Positions 1,247 through 63,029 of a DNA stretch of 64,000 nt are shown piece after piece. Source of the DNA: an uncultured bacterium (GTDB taxonomy: Bacteria > Patescibacteriota > Minisyncoccia > Phycocordibacterales > GWA1-40-21). A program made the position numbers and the translations under genes. Where the stretch lies: positions 83,524-147,523 of the forward strand of contig CAIKXE010000004.1 of NCBI GenBank assembly GCA_903831305.1, in the 5' to 3' direction. A model generated the notes under the pieces. That model made no database searches. It was not told the DNA's origin and saw only the letters and a list, made by a program, of their open reading frames with translations. Each line of letters begins with the position of its first letter. Position 1 is the first letter of the stretch.

Positions 1247-3725
1247 AACTTACTTCCGTTTCACTTCTATTATAAACATAATCAGTGGCGAGGATTTTTA
1301 GAGTATTTGTGGTACTGATGGCTTTTATGTTTGCTGGAGTAAAAGAAAAAAGGAAAGGAGAAACAGAGGAAGAGCCAATATAGGTACTGTTTAAATAAAA
1401 ATCTAATTTAGAAATCGGGAAAGTATTCTGACTCGTGGTTTGGATAATTATTTTTTGGTTTATGTTATAAGTTTGGTTTTCAACTGGGCTGACAATGATG
1501 ACCTTGGGGCTTCGGGCGGGGGTGTGAATATCATCTTTGGTGGCGGGCTTTATAGGTTGAGTTAGGCTCTGCGTTTTTAGCCATTGTTGTACTGGATATT
1601 CCCAGTGATCAAATTGCGGATCGTCACTAGGGTTTTCCGGTACCGCGCCCCAAGGGTCGGCTTTGTTTACCCAGTATAATATTTCGTGTACATCTGGAAT
1701 ATAGACTTCTACTTTGGTTTCATCCGGGGTAAATTCTGTGGCCAATTTGCCAGATATTTTATCAACCGTAAAAAAATCATAACCTTGCCAAACACCTCGG
1801 AAAACTGGTTTTATTTCCTTGCTCGTTGGGGTTGGAGCCGTAAAATATTCTTTAGAAAAAGAGGGTAGAGCTTCATCCATAAAAGCGCGCCACATGGGAG
1901 CAATAACCATGCCAGCCACCTTTTTATCAATAGAGGTATTGTCATTGTTTCCCGCCCAAGACCCTACTACCAAGTTTGGGGTATAACCAACAATCCAAAC
2001 GTCACGGAAGTCGTTTGTTGTACCAGTTTTAACCGCCACTTGTCGGTCGGAAAAATAAAGAGGGGACCGCGTGCCATAGGCGGGGGTTCTGGCTATGTTG
2101 TCTGACAGAATATCAGATATTTTATTAGCACTTTCCTCAGATAAAACTGCTTCCGGGTTATAAGTAGCTTGTTCTAGTATTTCACCGATTGAATTTTCTA
2201 CTTTCAGAATAGAGAGATAAGGGTTTCTTACGCCGGCATTGGCAAAGACCCCATAAGCACTAGTGAGTTCTAAGGGCGAGACTTCGCCACCTCCTAACAC
2301 CAATGTCAGACCATACTGATTAGCATCACCAAGGCTAGTAATACCCATGTTGCGAGCGGTGTCTAAAGAGTCCTTCACACCAGCGAGGTAGAGGGCTTTA
2401 ATGGATGGAATGTTTCGGCTTTGGGCTAGGGCATCGCGCAGAGTTATAGGCCCTAAATATTTGCTATCATAATTTTCCGGCATATAACAATCTTCAGGAT
2501 TGGTGTCACCTATTGGTTTGCCTTGAGCAGTACAGGTGGTTTGAAATTCGGTTGGTAGGTCAAAAAGAACGGTTTCCGGGGTATAACCCTTATTAAAGGC
2601 GGTGGCATAAACAAAGGGTTTAAAGGTAGAACCTGGTTGGCGGTGAGCAAGGGCGACATTAAAGTTTCCCTGTATTTCTTTGTCAAAGTAGTCACGAGAA
2701 CCCACCATCACTAGTATTTCACCGGTTTTGGGATCAATAGCTACTAAGGCCGCATTTTCCGCATTATAACTTATCTTATTTTCTAAAGCGTATTTTTTTA
2801 CCACCGCTTCGGCTTTGGCTTGCAAATCATAATTTAAGGTAGTTATTACTTTTAGGCCGTCCTCTCGAACTGCTTTTTCTCCATATTTATCCTCTAAATA
2901 TTGTCTGACATATTCCACAAAGTGGGCAGCTTTGATACCGTTTGATTGCTTTGGTTGAAAAATCACCACTTCAGCCTTAGCGGTTTTATACTCAACGTCG
3001 GTAATCATTTTGTTTTCTAATAGTCGGGACAAGACTAGATTTTTTCGGTTGTCTAACTTATCTTTATTGTTTCCATAGGGAGAATAATAGGTTGGGGCGT
3101 TTGGGATGGCGGCCAGATAGGCCGCTTCGGCTAGGGTAACTGAAGCTGCGTTTTTCTTAAAGAAGGTCTGAGCGGCTTCTTCTACTCCATAAATACTACC
3201 ACCATAAGGATTTTCGTTTAGGTAGACGGACAGTATTTCGTCCTTACTCATAATGTTCTCTAGTCTGATGGCAAGTACCCACTCTTTTATTTTTCTAGAA
3301 ATAGCATATTCAGAAGTTAGTAAAGAATTTTTTACAACTTGTTGAGTAATGGTAGAGCCCCCTCCGACCCCGCCCATAAGGTGGGCCAAAGTGGCGCGAA
3401 TGATGGCCTTGATCTCTATCCCACCATGGCTATAAAAACCGGTATCCTCAATGGCGATGGTGGCATTTTTAATATAAGGGGAGATTTTTTCAAAGGAGAC
3501 AACCTGTCTTTTAATGTCTTGATTGAGGTCAAAAAGTAGTATTTCTCCGGTTCGATCATAGATTTTAGTGCTTTGGGAGACCGTTCTTTCTTCAAAAGAA
3601 CGCAAGTCTGGCATTTTAAAGGTAGAAATCCAGAAAGTGATAATACCCAAGCCAATAAAGCCTAGGCTGGCCAAGTAAATAATAGCTTTTTTATAGTGTT
3701 TTTTGATATGTCTCATAATTATCAT
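1230..3725 (-). CDS. mrcA: class A penicillin-binding protein (transglycosylase + transpeptidase) with C-terminal extension
   Basis: N-terminal TM; GT51 region (RKIKEWVLAIRLE...ILSVYLNENPYGG...GVEEAAQTFF); transpeptidase region with STFKP. Confidence 0.85.
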   Translation of the reverse strand: MIIMRHIKKHYKKAIIYLASLGFIGLGIITFWISTFKMPDLRSFEERTVSQSTKIYDRTGEILLFDLNQDIKRQVVSFEKISPYIKNATIAIEDTGFYSHGGIEIKAIIRATLAHLMGGVGGGSTITQQVVKNSLLTSEYAISRKIKEWVLAIRLENIMSKDEILSVYLNENPYGGSIYGVEEAAQTFFKKNAASVTLAEAAYLAAIPNAPTYYSPYGNNKDKLDNRKNLVLSRLLENKMITDVEYKTAKAEVVIFQPKQSNGIKAAHFVEYVRQYLEDKYGEKAVREDGLKVITTLNYDLQAKAEAVVKKYALENKISYNAENAALVAIDPKTGEILVMVGSRDYFDKEIQGNFNVALAHRQPGSTFKPFVYATAFNKGYTPETVLFDLPTEFQTTCTAQGKPIGDTNPEDCYMPENYDSKYLGPITLRDALAQSRNIPSIKALYLAGVKDSLDTARNMGITSLGDANQYGLTLVLGGGEVSPLELTSAYGVFANAGVRNPYLSILKVENSIGEILEQATYNPEAVLSEESANKISDILSDNIARTPAYGTRSPLYFSDRQVAVKTGTTNDFRDVWIVGYTPNLVVGSWAGNNDNTSIDKKVAGMVIAPMWRAFMDEALPSFSKEYFTAPTPTSKEIKPVFRGVWQGYDFFTVDKISGKLATEFTPDETKVEVYIPDVHEILYWVNKADPWGAVPENPSDDPQFDHWEYPVQQWLKTQSLTQPIKPATKDDIHTPARSPKVIIVSPVENQTYNINQKIIIQTTSQNTFPISKLDFYLNSTYIGSSSVSPFLFSFTPANIKAISTTNTLKILATDYVYNRSETEVSFNVEE

Positions 3726-5609: not shown

Positions 5610-6101
5610 CTATTGTCGGTGGCAGGCAAAGTAGGTGAGACCGGTGGCGATGGCATCATACTCATCGTCATATTTGATTTTTTCGGTTATTGTTATGAGC
5701 TTTTTTACCATCATTATGACTTGGCTCTTATCACTTTTACCATAACCAGTGACCGCTACTTTTATTTGTAGGGGGGTAAATTCTTTTATATCCAAATTAT
5801 TTTTAGCGGCCTCGTAAAGCATTACTCCCCGGGCTTCAGATACCCGCATGGCGGTTTTGGCGTTGGTTTTAAAAAAGAGGGTCTCAATCGCCAGGGCCTC
5901 TGGCGCATATTTTTTAATTAAAGTGGATATTTCTATACCAATCAGGTGCAGTCTCTCTTCGGCGGTCTCGGTGGCCAAAGTTTTAAAACATTCAGAAAAA
6001 AGAAGGACTTCTTTTCCGTTGTTTTTTTCGAGGATAGCAATACCCACTCGTTCATAACCAGGATCAATGGCAATAATTTTCATATTATGATTATAACACA
6101 A
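5610..6101 (-). CDS. ruvC: crossover junction endodeoxyribonuclease RuvC
   Basis: MKIIAIDPGYERVGIAIL N-terminus typical of RuvC. Confidence 0.88.
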   Translation of the reverse strand: MCYNHNMKIIAIDPGYERVGIAILEKNNGKEVLLFSECFKTLATETAEERLHLIGIEISTLIKKYAPEALAIETLFFKTNAKTAMRVSEARGVMLYEAAKNNLDIKEFTPLQIKVAVTGYGKSDKSQVIMMVKKLITITEKIKYDDEYDAIATGLTYFACHRQ

Positions 6102-6152
6102 CCGCCCCGGTCATCAGAATGACCACCCCGCCTTAACTAAGGCGGGGATTAG
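6096..6152. repeat. two-hairpin miniature repeat element, copy A
   Basis: CACAACCGCCCC-GGTCATCAGAATGACC-ACCCCGCCTTAACTAAGGCGGGG; related copies at 20581-20640 and inside polA. Confidence 0.6.
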
Positions 6153-6170
6153 TTGGAATAATAGTAGCTA

Positions 6171-6695
6171 TTATTCTGCATTCGTATAAATTTCCTGCAC
6201 CTCATCATTGTCTTCTAGCTCTTCAATCAGTTTGTCTAATTTGAAGCCATCTTCTTCGGAAATTTCTACCATGGTATTTGGCATATAGCCTTCAGGGGTT
6301 TTAGTAAAAGCCCAAGAGGCACTCCCTGGAGCAGCCAAGGCACAGCCATTGGCGGAAAGAATGTGTTTGATTTCGCCAGCCGCCTTATTCCTATTATCCG
6401 TCAAAGCTTCAATCATCAGAGCTACTCCGCCTGGGCCGTAAGCCTCATACATGATGGATTCCATCTGTGTGGCATTGTCACTCTTTTTTAAGGCGCGTTC
6501 AATATTTTCATTTGGCACATTGTATTCCCGCGCCTTCTTAACCGCGGCTTGCACACCAGCCGCTTTGATATCACCGTTAGCTTTTTTAATTTCCACACCA
6601 ATCACCTTGGCCATCTTGGTATAGATTTTACCCTTACGGGCATCAGTGACCATTTTCTTATTCTTGATTTTTGACCATTTATTATGTCCAGACAT
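6171..6695 (-). CDS. yebC: YebC/PmpR family DNA-binding regulator (short, 174 aa)
   Basis: MSGHNKWSKIKNKK...EAYGPGGVA signature; sits between ruvC and ruvB as in many bacteria. Confidence 0.75.
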   Translation of the reverse strand: MSGHNKWSKIKNKKMVTDARKGKIYTKMAKVIGVEIKKANGDIKAAGVQAAVKKAREYNVPNENIERALKKSDNATQMESIMYEAYGPGGVALMIEALTDNRNKAAGEIKHILSANGCALAAPGSASWAFTKTPEGYMPNTMVEISEEDGFKLDKLIEELEDNDEVQEIYTNAE

Positions 6696-10721: not shown

Positions 10722-10741
10722 ATATGCTATAATCTCCCTAA

Positions 10742-13210
10742 ATGGCCAAGATAAACCCTAAAGAAAAATCTCGGGCAGGTAAAAAACTAGTGTTGCTAGA
10801 TGTGCATGCTATCATCCACCGGGCGTATCACGCCTTGCCAGAATTTGTGTCTAGTAAAGGTGTGCCAACCGGCGCTTTATATGGCCTTTCTACCATGCTG
10901 CTAAAAATCATTGGGGATATCAAACCGGACTATATCATGGCTTGTTATGATTTGCCCAAGCCCACTTACCGTCATGAAGCTTACAAGGATTATAAAGCCG
11001 GCCGAGCCAAGACAGATGACGAACTAGTGGCCCAGCTGAAGAAGTCTCGGGAGATCTTTGAAGCTTTTGATATACCAATTTATGATAAAGAGGGTTTTGA
11101 GGCGGATGATATGATCGGCACCTTGGTGGAAAAAGTGTTGAAGTTGGACAAGGCCTCGCCTTGTCCGGAAATTGACGTGGTGATTGCTTCTGGCGATATG
11201 GATACTTTACAGCTAGTGGTGGATGACCGTGTGCGGGTCTATACTTTAAAAAAGGGGATTAAAGATACAATTATTTATAATGAAAAAGCGGTGGTGGAGC
11301 GTTTTGGTTTTTTGCCTAAACTTTTGCCAGATTATAAAGGCCTCCGGGGTGATCCGTCTGACAACATTATTGGTATTAAAGGAATCGGGGAGAAGACAGC
11401 CGGGATTTTAATTCAAAACTTTGGGGGTATAGAGGACATTTATAAAAAATTAAAAGCTAAAGGAGGAAAGGAAGAATTTAAAAAAGCGGGGATCACTGAC
11501 CGAATAGTAAAACTGCTAGAAGAGGGGGAAGAGGAAGCTGAGTTTTCTAAAATGCTTGGAACGATAAGGCGAGATGCGCCGATTGATTTTAAAATTCCGG
11601 AAAAGACTTGGTCGGAAAATCTGGCGGAAGAAAAGGTGCTTAAGTTGTGGAGTGAGTTGGAGTTTAGGACTTTGGGGACAAGATTAAAAGAATTGGTGGG
11701 TGGAAAGGCGGGGGAAAGTGTGGCCGAGAAAAAAGAAGCTATAGTAAAGCAGAATAATCAGTTATTCGCGGATAGTGACTTGTCTGAGACTGAGCTAAAA
11801 GAAGCTCAGATTGCCCTCTGGCTTGTCAATTCCAATATTACGGACCCGAAAATTGAAGATATTATTAACCTGTCTGGACAAAAGGATTTGAAGTCCGCCA
11901 AAGACTTTTTGTTGGCGGAAATTAAAAATAAAAAATTAGATTATGTTTTCACGGAGATTGAGAAACCCCTAATTCCGATTATTAAAGAGATGGAAGCTTG
12001 GGGAATTGTGGTAGATAAAGAGGCCCTTTTGAAATTGTCCGTGGAGAATCACAAGATTTTGGCTGATTTGGAAAAGAAAATTTGGGATTTGGCTGGTAGT
12101 GAATTTAATATAAATTCCCCTAAACAGATGGGAGAGATTTTATTTGATAAGATGGGTTTGCAAGTGAAGAATCAAAAGAAAACGGCTGGTGGTAAAGCTT
12201 CCACTAAGGAAAGCGAGCTGGAAAAAATGCGGGATTTAGACCCGATCATCCCTTTGATTCTAGAATATCGCGAATTGCAGAAAATGCTCTCCACTTATAT
12301 TGATAATATTCCAAACATGGTGGCGCCAGATGGACGCTTGCATGCTCGGTTTTTACAAACTGGAACCACCACTGGACGCATGTCATCGCAAGATCCAAAC
12401 CTACAAAACATTCCGAATAAAAGTGGCCTAGGAATGGAGGTGCGGAAGGCTTTTAAAGCGGGACCGGGCTGTAAGTTAGTAGCTTTTGATTATTCGCAGA
12501 TTGAAATCCGTATTGCTGCCTTTCTATCCGGCGATGAAAAACTTTTGGAGATTTTTAGAAAAGGGGAGGATGTTCACACCGCCGTGGCCTCGGAAGTATT
12601 TGGCGTACCACTCAACCAGGTGGACAAAGAAATGCGCCGAAAAGCTAAAGTAATTAACTTTGGTATTATGTATGGGATGGGTGTTTCCGCTCTTAAACAA
12701 AACCTGGGCACAGAACGAGCGGAAGCGCAAAAGTTTTATGATGATTATTTTGCTAAATTCAGTGGTCTGGCCAAATATTTGGATAAGGTAAAAGAGGAGA
12801 CTAAACAAACCGGGTTTACAGAAACACTGTTTGGTCGCCGTCGCTATTTTGAGGGTATCAAGTCTAAAATTCCTTTTATTAAGGCCATGGCCGAGCGTAT
12901 GGCTATAAATGCGCCAATTCAAGGGACAGAGGCGGATATTATAAAACTAGCGATGATTAAGGTGGGGGAATTTTTGAGCACAACCGCCCCTAACCCCTCC
13001 TTAACTAAGGAGGGGGAGGGAAAGAAAAATATCCACCTGTTGTTACAGGTTCATGATGAACTCGTTTATGAGATGCCGGTGGAAATGGTGGAAAAAATAG
13101 CCCCTAGAATAAAAGAAATCATGGAAAACGTGGTTAGTTTAGAAAAAACTAAAGGCGTGGTCTGCAAGGTGGATTATAAAGTGGGGGATAATTGGGGCGA
13201 GATGAAATAA
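10742..13210 (+). CDS. polA: DNA polymerase I (5' nuclease + polymerase; 3'-5' exo region reduced)
   Basis: 5'-nuclease N-terminus; motif A DYSQIEIR; motif B RRKAKVINFGIMYG; motif C QVHDE; carries in-frame repeat-derived insert. Confidence 0.92.
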   Translation: MAKINPKEKSRAGKKLVLLDVHAIIHRAYHALPEFVSSKGVPTGALYGLSTMLLKIIGDIKPDYIMACYDLPKPTYRHEAYKDYKAGRAKTDDELVAQLKKSREIFEAFDIPIYDKEGFEADDMIGTLVEKVLKLDKASPCPEIDVVIASGDMDTLQLVVDDRVRVYTLKKGIKDTIIYNEKAVVERFGFLPKLLPDYKGLRGDPSDNIIGIKGIGEKTAGILIQNFGGIEDIYKKLKAKGGKEEFKKAGITDRIVKLLEEGEEEAEFSKMLGTIRRDAPIDFKIPEKTWSENLAEEKVLKLWSELEFRTLGTRLKELVGGKAGESVAEKKEAIVKQNNQLFADSDLSETELKEAQIALWLVNSNITDPKIEDIINLSGQKDLKSAKDFLLAEIKNKKLDYVFTEIEKPLIPIIKEMEAWGIVVDKEALLKLSVENHKILADLEKKIWDLAGSEFNINSPKQMGEILFDKMGLQVKNQKKTAGGKASTKESELEKMRDLDPIIPLILEYRELQKMLSTYIDNIPNMVAPDGRLHARFLQTGTTTGRMSSQDPNLQNIPNKSGLGMEVRKAFKAGPGCKLVAFDYSQIEIRIAAFLSGDEKLLEIFRKGEDVHTAVASEVFGVPLNQVDKEMRRKAKVINFGIMYGMGVSALKQNLGTERAEAQKFYDDYFAKFSGLAKYLDKVKEETKQTGFTETLFGRRRYFEGIKSKIPFIKAMAERMAINAPIQGTEADIIKLAMIKVGEFLSTTAPNPSLTKEGEGKKNIHLLLQVHDELVYEMPVEMVEKIAPRIKEIMENVVSLEKTKGVVCKVDYKVGDNWGEMK
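12979..13025 (+). repeat. partial copy of the two-hairpin repeat element inserted in-frame in polA (encodes ~TAPNPSLTKEGEGKK)
   Basis: CACAACCGCCCC-TAA-CCCCTCCTTAACTAAGGAGGGGGAGGG shares 5' 12-mer and hairpin 2 with copies A/B. Confidence 0.55.
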
Positions 13211-13211
13211 T

Positions 13212-13973
13212 ATGTTTTATTTATTTTACGGAGCGGATACAGCCAAAGCCAGAAGCCAAGCCTATAAGGTGGTGGAGGCGGCCAAGAAAAAGCATGAGAC
13301 GGCGGAATTTTTTAAATTAGACAGTGAAAACTTTTCCGCAAGTAAGCTGGATGAGCTTTCCGCTAGCCAAGGACTTTTCTATTCTGCCTTTATTATTTTG
13401 GCTGATAAGTTATGTGATGATGAGGATACTTCAGAGATCTTATTAAAAAAATTAAAGGAACTAAAAGAGTCACCAAACTTTTTTATCTTTTTAGAGGGAG
13501 CGCTGAATAAAAAAGAGCTAGAAAAATTTGGAAAATATGCGGAGAAAGTGGAGGAATTTAACAAACCAGGGCGGAAGCTAAATAAAAAAGAGGCTTTGGC
13601 CGCTAAAGGCGAGAAAATAGACTTCTTTGAATTTGCTAATACGCTGGGAGAGAGAAATAAAAAGCTACTTTGGACTCTGTATCAGGATGCTTTGGCGGAG
13701 GAGGTGGCTTCTGAGGAGGTGCATGCCATGTTTTTTTGGCAGGTAAAGTCCATGCTCGCAGCGGTAAAGTCTAAAGATGCCACCGAGGCCGGGCTAAATC
13801 CTTATGTTTTTACCAAGTCTAAGGGTTATGCGCAAAATTATGGAACCACAGCCCTCGAAAGTGAGAAAAAATTGAAGGAGATGTCTACCAGGCTCTTTGA
13901 AATGTATCATGAGGCCCATCGGGGGAAGGCGGATTTTGCGGTGGCGCTAGAGAGATTTATTTTGGAGTTGTAA
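13212..13973 (+). CDS. DNA polymerase III delta subunit-like protein (HolA-like), uncertain
   Basis: N-terminal FYLFYGAD resembles HolA start; placed after polA; short for HolA. Confidence 0.3.
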   Translation: MFYLFYGADTAKARSQAYKVVEAAKKKHETAEFFKLDSENFSASKLDELSASQGLFYSAFIILADKLCDDEDTSEILLKKLKELKESPNFFIFLEGALNKKELEKFGKYAEKVEEFNKPGRKLNKKEALAAKGEKIDFFEFANTLGERNKKLLWTLYQDALAEEVASEEVHAMFFWQVKSMLAAVKSKDATEAGLNPYVFTKSKGYAQNYGTTALESEKKLKEMSTRLFEMYHEAHRGKADFAVALERFILEL

Positions 13974-14003
13974 ACCTATTTGATTTGAGCATATAAAGTT
14001 CTA

Positions 14004-14027
14004 GGGCCCCCGAGGTTGTCGGGGGCC
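14004..14027 (-). terminator. GC hairpin gggcccccga-caac-ctcgggggccc after Cys-rich ORF
   Basis: perfect 9-10 bp GC stem. Confidence 0.5.
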
Positions 14028-14043
14028 CTTGCTCATCTCTCGG

Positions 14044-14214
14044 TCACTCACCAAGGGGCGGGCACTTGCTTCTGTCGCAGATGCTGAAGGCACAGAGTCC
14101 TTCAGCCAATCCGCACATGATGCAGTAGCGCTCCTCTTCCTTTTTCTCACCGTTCTTGTACACGGTGATGTGCCCGTTTGCCCTGGCTTTTTTTCGGCCT
14201 TCTGCTTCGTCCAT
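14044..14214 (-). CDS. Cys-rich small protein (56 aa) in GC-rich island
   Basis: ATG preceded by AAGGGGG SD; 5 Cys (CxxC..CxxxxC..C); promoter-like TTGCAA-17-TATGGT at 14273-14301. Confidence 0.35.
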   Translation of the reverse strand: MDEAEGRKKARANGHITVYKNGEKKEEERYCIMCGLAEGLCAFSICDRSKCPPLGE

Positions 14215-14331
14215 TGGAACCCCCTTGTCCTTCCGGCTCTATTAGTGGCCGGTCTTTTACTGTTCTTTCTATACCATACTGTATTTCTGTCACTTTTGCA
14301 AGGAGTGAGGCTGGACAAACACTTGGCTGTT

Positions 14332-15060
14332 TTATATTTTTTTATAAAAAGTCTTAAATATTTGTTTTTGGAATTCCGCAATCCTCTTACTCTCTATAGT
14401 CATACAAGTCTCAGAATTGTAATCAATGAAGGCTACTTTGTCCCCATAAATTATTTCTGTGACATTGTGCTCAAAAGGACCAAAATCCGGCGGTAATACT
14501 TTGGTAAAGCGGTCCAAACTCGGTCTCTTGTTCTTAGCTGTTTGAACATTGGTGATCACCTCGCGTTGTAGCCTTTTTTTATCACGCATTTTTTGATAAA
14601 TTCTCGGTACATATTTATCTTTTTTTTCCTGACCATTTTTGTTTGAACTGTAACGGTAAAAGGTGTCACCTTTTTTTAGACTCCTGACCACATCATCAAA
14701 TATTCTTTTAGTACCATCCTTACCCTCTAGGAATCTGATCTTGGGTCTCTTCTCACTGCTGGCATAGGCATCTTCCAAGTCTGGCAATATCTCAAAGAAA
14801 TCAATTTTTAAATCATCAAACAAGGTTTCCAGCCGGTTGGGTGGCTCAGCACCAAAGACCACGCTTTTCAGTTTTTGGGTTTTGGTCACCAGTTTTTTAT
14901 CCAGGAGGGCGGGGAGAGCTTTATAAATGAGGGGGCGGTGGATAGAAGTTTTCTCGGATATCTCGGAAATATTTGAAGTCCCCATCTCAAGTAGCGCCAA
15001 ATAGATAGCGCTTTCATTCTTGGTCAGCCCTATTTTCTCCAAAATTTTGTTTTTGTCCAT
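14332..15060 (-). CDS. TrmB-family transcriptional regulator (paralog 0)
   Basis: N-terminal wHTH LTKNESAIYLALLEMG; full-length similarity to the three regulators in the ABC-transporter locus. Confidence 0.7.
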   Translation of the reverse strand: MDKNKILEKIGLTKNESAIYLALLEMGTSNISEISEKTSIHRPLIYKALPALLDKKLVTKTQKLKSVVFGAEPPNRLETLFDDLKIDFFEILPDLEDAYASSEKRPKIRFLEGKDGTKRIFDDVVRSLKKGDTFYRYSSNKNGQEKKDKYVPRIYQKMRDKKRLQREVITNVQTAKNKRPSLDRFTKVLPPDFGPFEHNVTEIIYGDKVAFIDYNSETCMTIESKRIAEFQKQIFKTFYKKI

Positions 15061-19997: not shown

Positions 19998-20567
19998 TTA
20001 TTGTTTTCCTAAGTGTTTGAGAGCCGCTTTGACTCGGTCACTCGTGGTAATAAGGCTCTTATCTATTTCCTGAAGGGCTTCACGTGATTCACGGTGAGAA
20101 TAGCCTAAGGATTTTAAGGCCTCTAGAGCGTCAATCTCTTCTTTGAGACCGAGACTTACTTCTTCATAGCTACCAAGTTTGCCCTTGAGCTCTAGCACTA
20201 TTTTATCAGCCATCTTTTTACCCAAGCCAGAAACTTTGGTCAGGTGAGCGGTCTCCCCGGTGGAAATAGCTTTACGCAATGAATCCACCGTGGCAACATT
20301 TAGTATCCCTAACGCCGTCTTAGGCCCGACGCCGGAGATAGTAATCAATAATTCAAAAAAGTCCAATTCTTTTTTATCCGCAAAACCATAAAGGTCCAGG
20401 GCATTCTCTCGGACAGCGAGGTACGTCCAGATCTTTTGGGTCAGATCCACTTTAGCTAGGTTTAATAATTCAGTGGTACCAAACACCTTATAACCAATGT
20501 TATTGGTTTCTACGATGACAAATTTGTCGGCTTTATAGATTATCTTTCCAGTTATTTGTGAGATCAT
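19998..20567 (-). CDS. ruvA: Holliday junction DNA helicase RuvA
   Basis: MISQITGKI..., HhH pairs (GVGPKTAL), C-terminal RuvB-binding domain. Confidence 0.9.
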   Translation of the reverse strand: MISQITGKIIYKADKFVIVETNNIGYKVFGTTELLNLAKVDLTQKIWTYLAVRENALDLYGFADKKELDFFELLITISGVGPKTALGILNVATVDSLRKAISTGETAHLTKVSGLGKKMADKIVLELKGKLGSYEEVSLGLKEEIDALEALKSLGYSHRESREALQEIDKSLITTSDRVKAALKHLGKQ

Positions 20568-20580
20568 AAATTAATTATAG

Positions 20581-20640
20581 CACACCACCCCGGTTATCAG
20601 AATAACCACCCCTCCTTGACTAAGGAGGGGAAAGGGGAGG
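20581..20640. repeat. two-hairpin miniature repeat element, copy B
   Basis: CACACCACCCC-GGTTATCAGAATAACC-ACCCCTCCTTGACTAAGGAGGGG-AAAGGGGAGG; compensatory changes relative to copy A. Confidence 0.6.
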
Positions 20641-20705: not shown

Positions 20706-20972
20706 ATGCCTATAACTTCATCTGCCAAAAAGGCCTTAAGGGCCTCAAAACACAAAGCCGTTTTTAATCTTCGAAGAAAAGACGCTATTTCTGATGTTGT
20801 CAAAAAGCTTAAGAAGCTCGTCTTGGCTAAAGATATTAAGAAAGCCGAGGCTCTACTCCCAACCGCTTTCCAGGCCATAGATAAAGCTTGCAAGACCAAG
20901 TTAATCCACAAGAATACCGCCTCCCGTAAGAAAAGCCGTCTAGCCAAAATGCTCGCTAAGGCATCTAAATAA
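20706..20972 (+). CDS. rpsT: 30S ribosomal protein S20
   Basis: MPITSSAKKALRASKHKAVFN... typical S20. Confidence 0.9.
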   Translation: MPITSSAKKALRASKHKAVFNLRRKDAISDVVKKLKKLVLAKDIKKAEALLPTAFQAIDKACKTKLIHKNTASRKKSRLAKMLAKASK

Positions 20973-24682: not shown

Positions 24683-24837
24683 CATTGTTAAAAAATTTAT
24701 GCTATAATAAATATCTTATTAGCGTAATTAATCCTAAACCAAAATAAATATTTTGGTCGGACAAGAAAAAAATGGCAAAAGGAAATAATCGACAGCAAAA
24801 AGAGAAGAAGAAACCAAAGAAGGCAAAATAATTAAAA

Positions 24838-24877
24838 ACAGCGGAGGGTTCAGACCTGAACCCTCCGCTGTTTTTTT
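24838..24877. terminator. perfect 15-bp hairpin cagcggagggttcag-acc-ctgaaccctccgctg plus T run (bidirectional)
   Basis: read directly. Confidence 0.7.
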
Positions 24878-28506: not shown

Positions 28507-28578
28507 GCCCTCGTAGTTCAATGGATAGAACAAAGCTCTTCTAAGGCTTTGATGTTGGTTCGATTCCAACCGAGGGCA
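28507..28578 (+). tRNA. tRNA-Arg (anticodon UCU)
   Basis: acceptor GCCCTCG/CGAGGGC, anticodon stem AAGCT/GGCTT loop CTTCTAA, T arm GTTGG-TTCGATT-CCAAC. Confidence 0.8.
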
Positions 28579-28719
28579 CAATAAAAAGTACTCTTTTTTA
28601 TTGTGCCCGAGAGCAGGCATGGGTATGCCTGCGTGTTGGAATCGAAGCCTGTTTGAGATTTTTTAGAATTTCCGAATGAATAAAAAATCCAAACACGGAT
28701 ACTGTTCTCGTAGAGAAAG

Positions 28720-32562: not shown

Positions 32563-32731
32563 CCTATTATAACAGAGCCAAGTATGTTGTCAAATTTATT
32601 GACATTTATCTACATACCTTAATATACGGCTATATGTAAGAATATTATGTAATATATAGTTTAAATTGTTTGACGTATTTTGGTCTTGTGATACAATAAT
32701 TCTGTTAGTTTATTAATTATCAATTAATCAT

Positions 32732-33856: not shown

Positions 33857-33878
33857 AGATTATTAATAATTAATCACC

Positions 33879-33908
33879 AAAATAGCCCTAAACCAGGGCT
33901 ATTTTGGT
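33879..33908 (+). terminator. hairpin aaaatagccct-aaacc-agggctatttt
   Basis: perfect 11-bp stem. Confidence 0.65.
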
Positions 33909-33922
33909 GTCAGAAAAAGTGC

Positions 33923-39607: not shown

Positions 39608-39633
39608 GATCTTAAGAAGAAATAAATAAAACA

Positions 39634-39663
39634 AAAACCCGCTTATTGTTGCGGGTTTTTGTT
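39634..39663 (+). terminator. hairpin aaaaacccgc-ttattgtt-gcgggttttt
   Basis: read directly. Confidence 0.65.
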
Positions 39664-39686
39664 TATAGGTTAATATATAAAGACAC

Positions 39687-42593: not shown

Positions 42594-42602
42594 ATTAAAT
42601 TT

Positions 42603-42632
42603 AAAAACCCCGGTTATGATAACCGGGGTTTT
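42603..42632 (+). terminator. hairpin aaaaccccggttat-ga-ataaccggggtttt
   Basis: perfect palindrome; shares the CCCCGGTTAT 10-mer with repeat copy B. Confidence 0.7.
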
Positions 42633-42696
42633 TAGTTGTATATTAATTGGTAGACGCTACAGGTTTGAGGTATTTCTTTTAGCGTGATACATTTAT

Positions 42697-50202: not shown

Positions 50203-51130
50203 ATATCTTGTTATATTGTTGATAAACAATCTTATGAAAAAAGGTTTTACCCACACCCTAAATTTTAAAAGAAAGTTAGTATGTGGGTTTACATTACTCG
50301 AAATCCTCCTCGTCGTCGGCATCATCGCTGTCCTGGCCGGCATTGTTATTTTAGCTATTAATCCTACGAAACAGTTCTCCAATATCCGTAATACTCAAAG
50401 AAAGATGAATCTAGCGGAAATCAACAAAGCCTTATACCAATACTATATAGATAATAGCGGTTATCCTTCCACTCTCACCACCACCTTAACCGAAATATGT
50501 AACACCGGTACTGGTACTACTACCCACAGTGTAGTCTGTACTGGACTTATCGACCTCTCGGCTCTCGTCCCCACTTATTTAGTAGCTATCCCCGCTGATC
50601 CCCAAGCTACCTCTACCAATGCTTTATATAAGGTGATGAAGGGTACCAATAATAAACCCTATGTCAGTGCAGCTTCAGCTGAGCTTGGGGTAACGGTTGA
50701 GTTGGGGACGGCACCACCGGCTGTGGTTCCTTGTGGTGACCCTACTAGTGAGGCTTGTTGGTCGACGATTGCTAGTAGTAAAGCTTGGGGACCATCTGGT
50801 GTAACTACTGGTGCCCAAAGTAATACTGACGGATCGGCAAATACAGTAATCTTGGCCGGTTTAGCTGGTAGTTATCCGGCAGCGGAATATTGTGACGCTC
50901 TGTCAGAAGGAGGTTATACTGATTGGTATTTACCAGCTAAGGATCAGTTATTTTCTGGTCGTGTAGCTCTCGGTTTGTCTGGTTTCCCGAGTGGTGTTTA
51001 TTATTGGTCATCTACTGAGAATCAAAACTATCCAGGTGACGGCGCTTGGTTCCTGGATACCGACTACGGTGGCAGCATGGGCGACTACTACGATAAGATC
51101 AATCAGTTCTCCATTCGTTGTCTTCGCTAG
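50189..51130 (+). CDS. type IV pilin-like protein with C-terminal DUF1566 (Lcl-like) domain
   Basis: prepilin motif G-FTLLEILLVVGIIAVLAGI; C-terminal YTDWYLPAKDQL...YYWSSTE...RCLR. Confidence 0.65.
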   Translation: MLFLKYLVILLINNLMKKGFTHTLNFKRKLVCGFTLLEILLVVGIIAVLAGIVILAINPTKQFSNIRNTQRKMNLAEINKALYQYYIDNSGYPSTLTTTLTEICNTGTGTTTHSVVCTGLIDLSALVPTYLVAIPADPQATSTNALYKVMKGTNNKPYVSAASAELGVTVELGTAPPAVVPCGDPTSEACWSTIASSKAWGPSGVTTGAQSNTDGSANTVILAGLAGSYPAAEYCDALSEGGYTDWYLPAKDQLFSGRVALGLSGFPSGVYYWSSTENQNYPGDGAWFLDTDYGGSMGDYYDKINQFSIRCLR

Positions 51131-52740: not shown

Positions 52741-54681
52741 ATGAAAAGAAACCACGGTTTTACATTACTTGAAATCCTCCTCGTCGTCGGTCTCATCGCT
52801 ATCCTCGCTGGTATCGTGATTCTTGCCCTAAATCCCACCAAGATGTTCTCCCAAGTCCGTAATGCTCAGCGTAAGGCTAATCTGACAGAAATCAATAAAG
52901 CCGTCTACCAATATTATATTGATAACTCCCGTTATCCCGCCACCTTAACCTCCATCGCCACTGAGATCTGTAATACCGGGGCTACTTCTACTGGTCATAG
53001 TATAAGCTGTACTGGTTTGATTGACCTCTCAGCTCTCGTCCCTACTTATATGGTCGCCATCCCCACTGACCCCAGTGGGGCCATAAATACCGGTGGAGCC
53101 GGTTATAAAATAGCTAGTGACCCTATTGGTAAACCGTACCTTCAAGCCTCTCGCGCGGAACTCTCGGTCAGTATTTACATTGGTAATAGCACTGGAGTTC
53201 TAGGTACAAACTGGGATATGCCTGGAAGCTGGACTACACCTACTACAACCGGTAATCTCCGTTACTGGGTGGCCTCCTCGGCTGGCTCTTGGAATGATAC
53301 CGCTAACTGGTCTACTACCTCTGGTGGAGCGGGTGGCTCCTCGGTCCCCGGTTCTACCGAGGATGCCTACTTTGATGGTAGTGGAAATGGAGCTTGTACC
53401 ATAAATGCCACCGTCAATGTTAAAGGTCTAATCCTAGAAGGCTATTCCGGCACTATCACTCAAGGCTCCTATGCTGTGACGGTGGGGACTGATGGTTACT
53501 CTCAAGCCTCGGGGACCTTTACTGGTTCAGGTGCTGGCTCAGCGGTTACTGTAAATGGTATCTATAAATTGGCGGGAGGGGTGTTTACAGGGACAAGTGG
53601 GACGTTAACCGTGGCTGGTAATTTTACTAAAACGAATGGGACGTTTGCGCATAATAGCGGGACGACAAAAATGACTGGCTACGGGAGTACCTTTACTAGT
53701 GGTGGTACTACCTTTGGTAGTCTTACTTTTTATTCAACTGCCTATACCGCAAATCCATATGTCCTAGCCGACGATTTTGTTGTAGCAGGAGATTTAACAA
53801 TATCTTCAGCCGCATATGGATGGGTTACAGCCATATCTCCTCGCACAATTACCCTTCAAAGTAATTTTTATCAAACAACATCTTTTAATAGTGCACTTGG
53901 TGGTTTTGATACGAGTAATATAACTCTTATTATGACAGGAAGCGGAAAGACTTTTACTCTCTCATCCGGACAATTCAAAGCTAACTTAAGTTTACAAGGT
54001 GCAACTACATTAGCTTACTCAGCATATTTACCTAATTATTCTGGGACTCTCACTATTGATGCAAGTGTGGGTCTTGGCGCGGCATTAAATTGTGGTTCAT
54101 TAGTCATAAATTCCGGTAAGACCCTCACCACAAACAACTATGATGTTACCATTAGCGGCTCCTTAATTAATAGTGGCACGTTTACTTTGGGAACAAGTAA
54201 TGTAACATTAAGAAATGCATACAATTCAATAGTAACTCATACAACTGGTGGTATTGCCTTTAATAATCTGACACTTGGTGGAGCGAGTATAACTGGATCT
54301 CAAATATTAGCGGATAATTTTACAGTAGCTGGGACTTTGACGATCGGCGACGTCTCCTGGCTAAATACGGTTACTGCCACTTCTACTCGAACGATTACTC
54401 TTCAGGGTAATTTTGTTCAGACATTGCTTTCTAATAGTAACCTCGGCGGTTTTGATACAAGTAACATTACTCTTAATATGACAGGAAGCGGAAAGACTAT
54501 TAATTTTACTCAGGGTAAATTTAAGGCTAATTTAAATATTGCTAATTCTGCCTCAATTTCTTTGGTTAATAATTTAGTTGTTACTAGTGCCACGACTACT
54601 ATAAATGCCGGTGGTACATTAAACAAAATGGGCTATACCTTGACCGGGACTTTAGTAAATAATGGTACTCTAATACCTTAA
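52741..54681 (+). CDS. large type IV pilin-like protein (646 aa) with Thr/Gly/Ser-rich internally repeated C-terminal region
   Basis: prepilin motif G-FTLLEILLVVGLIAILAGI; N-terminal 140 aa paralogous to 50189 ORF; tandem ~180-aa repeats. Confidence 0.65.
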   Translation: MKRNHGFTLLEILLVVGLIAILAGIVILALNPTKMFSQVRNAQRKANLTEINKAVYQYYIDNSRYPATLTSIATEICNTGATSTGHSISCTGLIDLSALVPTYMVAIPTDPSGAINTGGAGYKIASDPIGKPYLQASRAELSVSIYIGNSTGVLGTNWDMPGSWTTPTTTGNLRYWVASSAGSWNDTANWSTTSGGAGGSSVPGSTEDAYFDGSGNGACTINATVNVKGLILEGYSGTITQGSYAVTVGTDGYSQASGTFTGSGAGSAVTVNGIYKLAGGVFTGTSGTLTVAGNFTKTNGTFAHNSGTTKMTGYGSTFTSGGTTFGSLTFYSTAYTANPYVLADDFVVAGDLTISSAAYGWVTAISPRTITLQSNFYQTTSFNSALGGFDTSNITLIMTGSGKTFTLSSGQFKANLSLQGATTLAYSAYLPNYSGTLTIDASVGLGAALNCGSLVINSGKTLTTNNYDVTISGSLINSGTFTLGTSNVTLRNAYNSIVTHTTGGIAFNNLTLGGASITGSQILADNFTVAGTLTIGDVSWLNTVTATSTRTITLQGNFVQTLLSNSNLGGFDTSNITLNMTGSGKTINFTQGKFKANLNIANSASISLVNNLVVTSATTTINAGGTLNKMGYTLTGTLVNNGTLIP

Positions 54682-60385: not shown

Positions 60386-60412
60386 AAAAAACCTCCGAGC
60401 GGAGGTTTTTTT
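60386..60412. terminator. hairpin aaaaaacctccg-agc-ggaggttttttt (bidirectional)
   Basis: read directly. Confidence 0.7.
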
Positions 60413-61624: not shown

Positions 61625-61794
61625 GACCCTTACAGGGTCAGTACCCGTGTTTGGATTTTTTATTCTCCTTCGAAAGACTCAGGATCTAAAAAATCTCAAA
61701 CAGGCTTCGCTTCCGCCCCGTAAGCAAAATCATTTGCTTACTCATCTCCACATAACAAAAATCGCCCATCAGAATGAGCGGGTTTTTGTACATG

Positions 61795-62208
61795 TGGAGA
61801 TGGGCGGAATCGAACCGCCGTGCATAAGAGTATCCTAATTGCTTCTACAAAGTCTAGTTAATTTATCTTCACTTGCGTGAATTTAAGTCTGTGATTTCAA
61901 AAAGAACAAAATGATCACAAACCGATCCTCTAATTTCTTTCCGTACCGAGAAAATTACGGAATATAATCTAATTTTATGTCACCCAGACCAGTTTATTAG
62001 ATATGGACTGATTGGATGCCGCTTAGGTTTGTTTTATGAAACGTAAGCGAAAGCAAAGTTGTTGGCCGCAAAATATGGGGACACAACAGACTTTACTCTT
62101 GAAACAATGCTATTAGCAGTTGTTTGTTTATTAACATTTTAGGTGTGTATAATAATGCACCACTTTGCGCAATCAAGGACAGATCAGATGTCTAGGCCGA
62201 TCATCCCC
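61795..62208 (-). ncRNA. ssrA: tmRNA (ssrA), ~414 nt
   Basis: 5' GGGGATG pairs with 3' CATCTCC-A; 3' T arm GGCGG-TTCGATT-CCGCC; smpB 0.4 kb away. Confidence 0.6.
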
Positions 62209-62301: not shown

Positions 62302-62574
62302 TTATAAAGTATGACCTATTTTATTTATATATTCATTTAGAATTTTTCTTTTCTCTCTAGCACCCCAGAGACTTTTTAAAAATCTTTCTTTGTTAAACGC
62401 AGCAGTTTTGCTTGGGGCTTCTTCTAAATGAATTCTTACTAAAGGACGTCTATTTTTCGTGGTAAGTACTTTTCCAGAATTATGTTCTTCTAGTCTTTGG
62501 TCTGGATTTTGTGTACATCCAACATATAGGCGATTATCTTTTTTGCTTAGTAAAATATAAACAAAATAGGGCAT
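62302..62574 (-). CDS. GIY-YIG nuclease family protein (90 aa, YhbQ-like)
   Basis: FVYIL...LYVGCT...R..EHN motif set. Confidence 0.75.
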   Translation of the reverse strand: MPYFVYILLSKKDNRLYVGCTQNPDQRLEEHNSGKVLTTKNRRPLVRIHLEEAPSKTAAFNKERFLKSLWGAREKRKILNEYINKIGHTL

Positions 62575-62579
62575 ACTTA

Positions 62580-63029
62580 TTATTCATTTTTCAAAGTGCG
62601 GCGTATATCACGATCTGTCTCGCGTTTCTTGATAGTCTCGCGTTTATCAAAGCTCTTTTTACCCTTGGCAATACCGAGTTCTAGCTTGAGCTTTCTACCT
62701 GTATTATACACCGCTATAGCCACAATTGTCAAGCCTTTCTTGTTTTCAATCTCAGTCAGCTGTTTGATCTCTTTTTTGGTCAATAAAATCTTTCGATTTC
62801 GGAGAGGGTCGTAATCAGCAGGAGTATTAGTGGCCTGATAGGCGGGGATATTGGCGCCAATGAGGAAGGCTTCTCCACCGCGGACCGTGACATAAGCGCC
62901 ATCGAGCTGACCCTTTTTCCCCCGCACACTCTTTACCTCCAAGCCTAAAAGCTCTAGCCCGGCGGTAAATTTGTCCGTGATTTCATAGTTAAAGTATGCT
63001 TTTTTATTTTGTAGTAAACTTTCACTCAT
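62580..63029 (-). CDS. smpB: SsrA-binding protein SmpB
   Basis: KAYFNYEI..., C-terminal basic tail; canonical SmpB. Confidence 0.92.
   Translation of the reverse strand: MSESLLQNKKAYFNYEITDKFTAGLELLGLEVKSVRGKKGQLDGAYVTVRGGEAFLIGANIPAYQATNTPADYDPLRNRKILLTKKEIKQLTEIENKKGLTIVAIAVYNTGRKLKLELGIAKGKKSFDKRETIKKRETDRDIRRTLKNE

Follow-up and report, generated by a model that had tools for sequence, protein, structure and literature searches.

Are the short G/C-rich hairpin repeats that stand beside the Holliday-junction genes of an uncultured bacterium elements of control, or are they insertions with no bearing on these genes? The question is raised by a 64,000-nt stretch of DNA (hereafter the window) from a member of the Patescibacteriota (GenBank assembly GCA_903831305.1, contig CAIKXE010000004.1, positions 83,524–147,523 of the forward strand), for which a preliminary description had reported two-hairpin repeats next to ruvC and ruvA and had considered both possibilities. 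We find three copies of the repeat in the window, copy A (6096–6152), copy B (20581–20640) and copy C (12979–13020), and in our reading they are probably gene-less members of a widespread group of G/C-rich, three-block repeats known as BoxC, PIT elements or triplex motif (TM), which behave as selfish insertions and are linked to genes for DUF559 endonucleases.

On its G-rich strand, each unit is made of a C-block, a loop, a complementary G-block, a linker and a G-block that mirrors the preceding one. Copy C, which represents the short, canonical form, has TTA as its linker; in the long form, to which copies A and B belong, a covarying hairpin of 16 nt takes this place. The three copies and their parts are the following.

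6096–6152, copy A: CACAACCGCCCC, GGTCATCAGAATGACC, A, CCCCGCCTTAACTAAGGCGGGG; long form, reading CCCCGCC-TTAGTTAA-GGCGGGG-T-(GGTCATTCTGATGACC)-GGGGCGGTTGTG on the minus (G-rich) strand; between yebC (6171–6695, minus strand) and ruvC (5610–6083, minus strand).
6097–6108, minus strand, third block or 'leader' of copy A: GGGGCGG, the exact mirror of the arm GGCGGGG; its end, GGTTGTG, merges into the promoter.
6109–6124, hairpin 1 of copy A: GGTCAT-CAGA-ATGACC, which fills the second loop of the triplex-motif architecture.
6126–6147, hairpin 2 of copy A: C-block CCCCGCC(TT) and G-block (AA)GGCGGGG, forming a 9-bp stem with a 4-nt loop.
20581–20640, copy B: CACACCACCCC, GGTTATCAGAATAACC, A, CCCCTCCTTGACTAAGGAGGGG, AAA, GGGGAGGT; long form with both outer blocks, reading ACCTCCCC-TTT-CCCCTCC-TTAGTCAA-GGAGGGG-T-(GGTTATTCTGATAACC)-GGGGTGGTGTG on the minus strand; between ruvA (19998–20567, minus strand) and rpsT (20706–20972, plus strand).
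20592–20607, hairpin 1 of copy B: GGTTAT-CAGA-ATAACC.
20609–20630, hairpin 2 of copy B: CCCCTCCTT-GACT-AAGGAGGGG.
12979–13020, copy C: CACAACCGCCCC, TAA, CCCCTCCTTAACTAAGGAGGGG, GAGGG; short form, reading CCCTC-CCCCTCC-TTAGTTAA-GGAGGGG-TTA-GGGGCGGTTGTG on the minus strand; within the polA open reading frame (ORF; 10742–13210, plus strand).

Copies A and B, including the paired differences between them in both hairpins, are exactly as the preliminary description had them, and so is their placement: from the end of the element to the ATG that follows, the distance is 13 nt for copy A (ruvC) and 14 nt for copy B (ruvA), with Pfam confirming RuvC, YebC, RuvB, RuvA and S20 as their neighbours. Both follow the same order, i.e. 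a leader (CACAACCGCCCC or CACACCACCCC), hairpin 1 (GGTYAT-CAGA-ATRACC), an A and hairpin 2 (CCCCKCCTT-RACT-AAGGMGGGG); in the window the hairpin 1 pattern matches twice and the hairpin 2 pattern at three loci, as against none in dinucleotide shuffles. The third, partial copy that had been noticed inside polA is copy C, which has TAA in place of hairpin 1 and lies in frame, its plus strand coding for STTAPNPSLTKEGEG in the loop that precedes the QVHDE motif of the polymerase. When folded as single-stranded DNA with Watson–Crick pairs only, the elements reach z = −3.9 to −5.6 relative to shuffles on either strand, with computed stem stabilities of −16 to −19 kcal/mol, and copy B folds on both strands as a three-way junction closed by ACC.CCCC/GGGG.GGT. 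Eight contigs, all from the same population, are identical.

The three blocks are found in every copy (minus strand): CCCCGCC / GGCGGGG / GGGGCGG in copy A, with exact mirror symmetry, CCCCTCC / GGAGGGG / GGGGTGG in copy B, where T lies opposite A, and CCCCTCC / GGAGGGG / GGGGCGG in copy C, with one odd position. At its middle position, the third block follows the central pair of the hairpin, with G where that pair is G-C in 11 of 12 cases and A or T where it is T-A in 106 of 114, as would be needed for a third strand that folds back; among Patescibacteria taken by themselves this tracking is weak. Repeats of this architecture have been published under the names BoxC, PIT elements and TM, or TMECO, the intrastrand triplex motif (Holder 2015, NAR 43:10126, PMC4666352), having been described in E. 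coli first as BoxC and later as PIT (Bergler 1992 and Hoyne/Maher 2000, as cited in PMC4666352). The E. coli motif reads CCCTCNCCC-N3–6-GGGNGAGGG-N3-GGGNGAGGG, with a second loop that is often TTA and also CCG; the TM numbers 3610 copies across 262 proteobacterial genomes, TMECO in E. coli is always intergenic, shows no orientation bias and is associated with rearranged loci, and in earlier tests the motif had neither promoter nor terminator activity (PMC4666352).

The likeness of the window repeats to these elements lies in (i) the three blocks, with TTA as the second loop of copy C; (ii) their occurrence in several, mostly intergenic copies of mixed orientation and no assigned function, the exception being copy C, which lies inside a gene; (iii) their location at loci that are hypervariable, in the present case the site in polA and both ruv junctions; and (iv) the existence of copies that adjoin a DUF559 gene, as in the ycjD–BoxC–fabI arrangement of E. 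coli (locus L219), where the BoxC copy between ycjD and fabI reads CCCTCGCCCCTCTGGGGAGAGGGTTAGGGTGAGGG. They differ in their 7-nt blocks of another sequence (CCCCKCC), compared with 9-nt blocks in E. coli, and are not TMECO copies; in a first loop of 8 nt, or of 4 nt if the TT/AA pair forms, compared with 3–6 nt in the E. coli consensus; in the 16-nt hairpin that makes the second loop of copies A and B 17–18 nt long; in the intragenic position of copy C; and in their host, a member of the Patescibacteria (candidate phyla radiation). A regular expression for the E. coli consensus matches in L219 and has no match in the window. The published search admitted loops of 1–6 nt, so the hairpin-in-loop variant represented by copies A and B would have been missed by it, and the association with DUF559 described below is absent from that study (PMC4666352). 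The window copies are thus a new sequence subfamily, together with a hairpin-bearing variant, of the BoxC/PIT/TM kind, present as orphan insertions, and the published triplex reading suits their mirror symmetry better than a G-quadruplex or an i-motif. With them, the BoxC/PIT/TM family gains a repeat from Patescibacteria and a hairpin-in-loop variant, and extends to many phyla.

The extent of the family is apparent from an exact-pattern scan for CCCCNCCTTNACTAAGGNGGGG with one genome per species, which returned at least 118 loci where, by our own arithmetic, about 4 are expected by chance. The matches listed come from Bacteroidota, Gamma- and other Pseudomonadota, Nitrospirota, Acidobacteriota, Ignavibacteriota, Planctomycetota, Actinomycetota and many Patescibacteria. 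Nearly all of them keep the flank AACC(A/G/T)CCCC, which the pattern leaves unconstrained and whose head is ACACAACCGCCCC in Patescibacteria; it is followed by a 2–5-nt linker (TAA, TG) or a mini-hairpin and then by hairpin 2. Of 127 family members, 91 are intergenic, without strong orientation bias. The hairpin 2 loop is seen in both orientations relative to the leader, some copies have an inverted outer block (GGGGTGGTT), and both tandem arrays and inverted dimers occur, the latter in L044, L069, L073 and L224. A scan of a viral contig collection with the hairpin 2 pattern gave 0 matches, which argues against carriage of the element by phages.

Across the family, the sequence of hairpin 1 varies greatly but nearly always folds. 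An alignment of 17 distinct copies of the long form, taken from related genomes, has 93% of its cells paired (38–55% in slid controls); all six pairs of hairpin 1 have changed on both sides, the observed values are not attained in any of 500 shuffles, and G-U occurs in only 1 of 255 pair cells. Outside Patescibacteria the hairpin 1 loops are TTC, TGC and TCC, that is GAA, GCA and GGA when read on the G-rich strand; a C:G-closed GNA triloop is the hallmark type of hyperstable DNA mini-hairpin. The preliminary description had assigned the structural constraint to RNA or to cruciform DNA. The constraint itself is borne out by this covariation and, of the two levels, the evidence favours DNA, because G-U pairs are nearly absent, the hairpin 2 loop exists in both orientations and the third block mirrors the arm. 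Rfam 15 gave nothing in the window at gathering thresholds, and only chance-level hits (E ≥ 0.08) at 6040–6200; a full-text literature search with strings of the element sequence retrieved nothing relevant.

Do relatives carry the repeats at the same sites? We compared the window with 80 polA-centred loci from Paceibacteria/Taylorbacteria-like genomes, in which the ruvC, yebC, ruvA, rpsT gene order is conserved, and the comparison shows all three window copies as evident lineage-specific insertions. First to be considered is the yebC–ruvC junction, which is nearly closed in relatives (2–6 nt in L134, L138, L139, L202 and L177; 2–20 nt with L127 included), unlike in the window, where the spacer is 87 nt long; L130 has at this place a diverged short-form copy, with a hairpin 2 that is longer on both arms (CCCCTCTCC/GGAGAGGGG), and 770 nt of other DNA. 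Between ruvA and rpsT, L129 offers an empty site, both flanks of which align around a gap of ~60 nt matching ACACCACCCC...GGGGAGGT. As for polA, 110 of 117 homologues have a 32-residue ancestral segment without insert before the QVHDE motif. The site is ancestral in L132, L134–138 and L157; it holds the short form in the window and in L127, the long form with hairpin 1 in L194, P0003 and P0004, a remnant in L128–131, L139 and L202, and in L133 (2382–2558) a nested or double insert, which leaves the frame open, extends the loop to 59 residues compared with an ancestral 20 and has a hairpin 1 identical to that of copy B.

In a neighbour-joining tree of polA, most insert-bearing alleles fall in one clade, with the remnants of L139 and L202 elsewhere, and sister alleles differ in form (short in L127, long in L194), a pattern more readily explained by turnover or conversion between copies than by slow divergence. 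In ~1 Mb of this clade three-block motifs are rare, and in the sampled polA neighbourhoods they occur only at polA and at ruvC/ruvA. The yebC–ruvC and ruvA–rpsT junctions appear to be insertion hot spots. Two further ORFs, neither of which is a DUF559 gene, lie at these junctions: one of 189 codons and unassigned function between yebC and ruvC in L130 (1104–1845), and one of 360 codons between ruvA and rpsT in L138 (17036–18252).

Elsewhere the repeats are accompanied by a gene. In L070, two inverted long-form copies bracket an ORF of ~100 residues between rpsJ and rplC. A motif search followed by a hidden Markov model (HMM) search found 12 ORFs of this kind in 819 kb of repeat-centred loci, all of them touching an element, and 0 in 994 kb of control sequence; Pfam assigns the 12 to DUF559 (PF04480, E 1e-27 to 1e-35). 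Reciprocally, among 13 DUF559 loci picked on protein similarity alone (seven from Patescibacteria and six others), a three-block motif lies within 300 nt in 12 (13 by eye), compared with 4 of 400 control windows. DUF559 thus stands next to or between repeats in all 25 loci examined; layouts differ, and the gene always lies within a larger palindromic arrangement of the same blocks, with inverted or direct flanks. In L207, which shares its contig with L139, DUF559 is driven by the succession of hairpin 2, hairpin 1, GGGGTGGTGG, TGTGTTAGAAT and ATG, i.e. the layout seen upstream of ruvC and ruvA in the window. The gene is inserted between ruvB and yebC in L208, and between rpsS and rplB in L209. 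The six loci from outside Patescibacteria, which come from a plasmid collection, belong to Picosynechococcus, Synechocystis, Azospirillum, N. gonorrhoeae, Deinococcus and E. coli (ycjD), and the downstream neighbour of ycjD is the BoxC copy that precedes fabI. These counts show a tight and reciprocal association between the repeat family and DUF559 (Vsr-like PD-(D/E)xK) genes. Within PD-(D/E)xK, DUF559 shares a clade with Vsr and with I-Bth0305I, a homing endonuclease (PMC3424549), and the closest solved structure, 3HRL, is unannotated. We found no paper linking DUF559 or ycjD to these repeats in a search that left aside subscription journals, where an earlier mention is possible.

The preliminary description had allowed that a wider scan might find these copies only, or that the motif might be a terminal repeat of an insertion sequence (IS). 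As it was put, neither is the case, given the many more covarying copies; yet the element has turned out to be the flank of DUF559 cassettes and a member of the published BoxC/PIT/TM family. On the contig of the window itself, ~5.6 kb past its end, L224 holds a gene-less inverted pair of elements (3415–3560, between folD and an ftsX-like gene), of subtypes CCCCGCC/GGTGGGG and CTCCTCC/GGAGGAG and ~30 nt apart, the right member sharing its subtype with the repeats that flank the P0180 DUF559 cassette (L209/L210).

Two of the plasmid-collection loci deserve a word of description. In L222 (400–900; Deinococcus psychrotolerans plasmid), DUF559 lies between paaD and paaZ with near-perfect inverted flanks of ~50 nt, each composed of a C-block and a C/G hairpin; this is the cleanest transposon-like cassette that we have seen. 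In L219 (800–1060; E. coli), the last ~45 nt of ycjD are duplicated downstream (GAGACGGTGCTGGAGAATATTC...CTGAACCG), each copy being followed by BoxC-like sequence, and the duplicate looks like the remnant of a second DUF559 copy.

How might such repeats be maintained? We propose that they would be selfish, non-autonomous DNA, persisting and spreading at the DNA level, with single-stranded hairpins or fold-back structures forming during replication or repair. The DUF559 nuclease would be their likeliest partner in trans, much as the REP-associated tyrosine transposases (RAYT) are for repetitive extragenic palindromic (REP) sequences. Alternatively, the repeats might be scars or solo ends of DUF559 cassettes that lost the gene through recombination between their palindromic flanks: hairpin 2 is its own reverse complement, so that even inverted flanks provide direct-repeat homology for a deletion. 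The copy in polA, lying in frame, speaks for an additional ability of gene-less units to insert alone. A broader proposal, to which we hold only tentatively, is that BoxC/PIT/TM repeats across bacteria are the cognate DNA partners of DUF559 nucleases in a selfish system resembling the REPtrons; the nuclease would recognise or cut the folded three-block structure and in this way seed, spread or maintain the repeats, gene-less copies being the products. If true, this proposal would assign a function to a protein family that is still uncharacterised (3HRL, E. coli YcjD) and say where the repeats, unexplained since 1992, come from. No function is known for the repeats or for DUF559, and their association merges the two into one question; it is the new point here, and the part worth following up.

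Several observations weigh against this picture. Kinship with BoxC rests on the architecture, the TTA linker and the gene association and not on sequence alignment; triplex formation was seen in vitro with E. coli oligonucleotides (circular dichroism and nuclear magnetic resonance) but not detected in vivo, and Holder et al. found no link between the E. coli motif and mobile elements (PMC4666352). Note also that E. coli has 23 motif copies and apparently a single ycjD; copy number varies, from 29 in E. coli 55989 to 1 in IHE3034 and none in Salmonella. Comparison of filled with empty sites yields no convincing target-site duplication and does not allow clean element ends to be defined. An HMM search for DUF559 found none in the window, none in the next ~9 kb of its contig (L224) and none in 0.93 Mb of related loci (L127–L206); the window copies, beside which there is no PF04480 gene, are orphan copies for this reason, and their mobilisation in trans is what we infer, not observe, in this genome. 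The L209/L210 cassette comes from the same sample series as the ruvA of the window, a link at the level of the samples. Some of the flanking motifs at DUF559 loci were recognised with a detector of our own design. Lastly, all three window copies touch repair or replication genes, which purely random insertion does not predict; by analogy, such a location would be in keeping with selfish nuclease cassettes, which usually reside in conserved core genes.

As the preliminary description suspected, the repeats behave as selfish insertions of the REP type or of that of the Rickettsia palindromic elements (RPE). The latter, reportedly described by Ogata in 2000, are 100–150 bp long and restricted to one genus; the double-hairpin elements, or GC clusters, of fungal mitochondria are said to have been described by Paquin in 2000. 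Both are selfish palindromic DNA found in frame in conserved protein genes as well as between genes, and the mitochondrial elements likewise fold as two adjacent hairpins. Copy C and its polA relatives are in-frame insertions with an open frame, in the manner of RPE, which is a functional analogy and not membership: RPE differ in size, in host range and by their unrelated sequence, and the mitochondrial elements are organellar. We know of no nuclease gene associated with the mitochondrial elements, nor of any cleavage or transposition activity of DUF559. Correia elements, which are 100–155 bp long, duplicate a TA target and occur in Neisseria only, resemble the present repeats as small inverted-repeat elements whose ends create or modify adjacent promoters on insertion, and differ in having no three-block G/C architecture. 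Features of miniature inverted-repeat transposable elements can be seen in the imperfect outer repeats of copy B (ACCACCCC and GGGGAGGT), with no clear duplication in filled compared with empty sites.

Another parallel is provided by the free-standing Vsr-like (EDxHD) homing endonuclease genes, small selfish nuclease genes found in or between conserved replication, repair and ribosomal genes (PMC2677866, PMC3239194). These genes have conserved upstream hairpins and a promoter, and one locus kept the hairpin after loss of the nuclease gene (Dassa 2009, PMC2677866), a situation that matches the orphan copies described here. They differ in being phage- or intein-associated, in their extra DNA-binding domains and in their hairpins, which are RNA translational controls and are not dispersed (Dassa 2009, PMC2677866; I-Bth0305I, Taylor 2011, PMC3239194), whereas the DUF559 proteins considered here have ~100–120 residues and are not known to have an activity.

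To appreciate what the repeats could do at their present sites, their position relative to the promoters has to be considered, for which three further features are needed.

6090–6098, minus strand: extended −10 box of ruvC, TGTTATAAT, followed by 6 nt and the ATG at 6083; a consensus match only.
20574–20582, minus strand: extended −10 box of ruvA, TGCTATAAT, followed by 6 nt and the ATG at 20567; its TG lies inside the first bases of copy B.
6156–6176: AT-rich 7-bp hairpin, GAATAATAG-TAG-CTATTATTC, overlapping the yebC stop codon, within the 87-nt spacer that is absent from relatives.

Copy A begins directly upstream of the ruvC box. The layout TGnTAnAAT, 6 nt, start codon is repeated at many genes of the window (examples at 10725, 17776, 36753, 54756 and 58532 on the plus strand, and at 32574, 21593, 20582, 16232, 9803 and 6098 on the minus strand, the spacing being occasionally 3–8 nt). 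Because the start codon sits 6 nt past the extended −10 box, the ruvC and ruvA transcripts are predicted to be leaderless, as seems to be the rule in this organism, and would therefore have no ribosome-binding site for the hairpins to mask, contrary to an overlap that the preliminary description had envisaged. A consensus promoter scan did not call the ruvC and ruvA promoters, which it missed because they have no −35 box. In L129, the relative with an empty site, the position of the ruvA box is occupied by GCTTATACT, without the TG. Copies A and B would thus take the place of the AT-rich −35 region and supply the TG of the extended −10, copy A would have split yebC from ruvC, which formerly abutted, and copy C would lengthen a variable loop in DNA polymerase I by ~10 residues. 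These local effects are no conserved control mechanism for the ruv genes, and they call for some caution in annotation, as such repeats can lie in frame in essential genes (polA) and right against promoters.

The rival explanations can now be weighed. The repeats resemble the REP/REPIN–RAYT systems, or REPtrons (Di Nocera et al. 2013, PMC3733652), in their short G/C palindromes with an unpaired conserved head, in their occurrence as singletons, inverted dimers and arrays, in the small nuclease gene bracketed by repeats, in the many gene-less copies and in their occasional presence inside replication and repair genes. One may then ask whether a RAYT (an IS200/IS605-like Y1 transposase) mobilises them as REP/REPIN sequences, or whether they are miniature IS derivatives, DUF559 being incidental, all the more so as there are precedents for REPs that inserted into replication and repair genes and for transposase genes lying between inverted repeats that contain GGGG (PMC3733652). 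However, the GTAG/CGTC tag is absent, the head being AACC(A/G/T)CCCC; the gene beside or between the repeats is DUF559, a PD-(D/E)xK Vsr-like family and not an HUH/Y1 transposase, in each of the 25 loci examined; the sites show no target-site duplication; and no ORF with an HUH/Y1 motif was found in any fetched locus by a crude regular expression, which is a weak test. We consider this explanation improbable. Even less can be said for intrinsic terminators or RNA-stabilising stem-loops that would look alike through the convergence of strong G/C hairpins. The stems are indeed very stable (−16 to −19 kcal/mol) and copy A is at the 3′ end of yebC, but the terminators proper to this genome are made of an A-tract, a stem and a T-tract (24834–24875, 28574–28608, 33875–33909, 39629–39664, 42602–42634, 60386–60411), while a T-tract is absent after every copy. 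Copy B lies between divergent genes, and only a lenient scan flags copy B, on the minus strand, where no gene ends. Moreover, convergence cannot account for the unpaired leader AACCNCCCC, the common loop sequences or the DUF559 association, which makes this origin very unlikely.

A cis-regulatory RNA or DNA element for recombination and repair genes, controlling ruvC and ruvA by masked translation signals or attenuation, was the other possibility raised in the preliminary description. It would explain why the window copies all touch repair or replication genes (ruvC, ruvA, polA) and why copy A stands where read-through from yebC would enter ruvC; the minus-strand hairpin of copy B that the lenient scan calls terminator-like, and the related genome with a DUF559 cassette inside the ruvB–yebC–ruvC operon, could be invoked as well. 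But close relatives have no copies at the same sites, where conserved regulators should be present; members of the family stand at unrelated genes across many phyla, in either orientation; leaderless ruvC and ruvA offer neither a 5′ untranslated region nor a ribosome-binding site, which puts the elements upstream of the transcription start; copy C is intragenic and, relative to its gene, on the opposite strand compared with copies A and B; no Rfam family matches and G-U pairs are nearly absent; and BoxC/PIT motifs had no promoter or terminator activity in published tests (PMC4666352). The regulatory reading, largely refuted by the empty orthologous sites, is in our opinion very unlikely indeed. 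The remaining candidate, which takes hairpin 1 for the operator of a dimeric repressor (LexA-like, SOS) over the −35 of damage-inducible ruvC, ruvA and the DUF559 gene of L207, is the least credible. A 16-bp inverted repeat does sit at the −35 of two repair-gene promoters, and a hairpin of the same type precedes the nuclease gene of L207, yet what is conserved is the asymmetric centre ATCAGAAT, while the arms vary and covary (GGTCAT, GGTTAT, GTCCAT, GGCTAT, GTCTAT), the opposite of what a dimeric operator would display, and we rejected it on these grounds. The same hairpin is present inside the polA coding sequence of L133 and L194, other phyla have unrelated mini-hairpins or a 2–3-nt linker in its place, and the ruv promoters of relatives are devoid of hairpin 1. 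Compared with these alternatives, selfish insertion of BoxC/PIT/TM-like repeats remains the reading that we favour; taken alone, the three copies are ordinary selfish repeats, and their annotation as regulators of the ruv genes is unwarranted.

Other candidates were discarded. A hammerhead ribozyme, suggested by CUGAUGA on the minus strand of copy A, was rejected: the motif lies within hairpin 1, copy B reads CUGAUAA and there is no Rfam match. Mimicry of Shine–Dalgarno and anti-Shine–Dalgarno sequences (CCUCCUU/AAGGAGG) fails as a general explanation, as copy A and many Patescibacteria copies read GGCGGGG and the genes are leaderless. The rplS terminator (42602–42634), which the preliminary description had connected with the repeats, does contain the sequence in question (CCCCGGTTAT) and has 10 nt in common with the element. 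It is nevertheless an ordinary terminator of the A-tract/stem/T-tract type, like ~8 others in the window, without any further feature of the repeat family, and the resemblance is coincidental.

Some other features of the window are worth recording. The stretch 14001–14330, between a gene end at 13973 and a TrmB-family gene (14332–15060, minus strand), is unusually G/C-rich and starts with a 9-bp G/C hairpin, AGGGCCCCC-N9-GGGGGCCCT (14003–14029); it has no match in Rfam even at E 0.1 and may be an uncharacterised RNA gene or a further inserted element. According to Pfam, a 90-residue ORF with a GIY-YIG nuclease domain (62302–62574, minus strand) lies between smpB (62580–63029) and the tmRNA (61792–62208), possibly another small selfish nuclease gene in a conserved locus. 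Finally, the window has two pairs of diverged direct repeats, 50285–50584 with 52756–53055 (300 nt, 74% identity) and 53823–53989 with 54369–54535 (167 nt, 75% identity), both of which are probably repeated domains within or between large genes.

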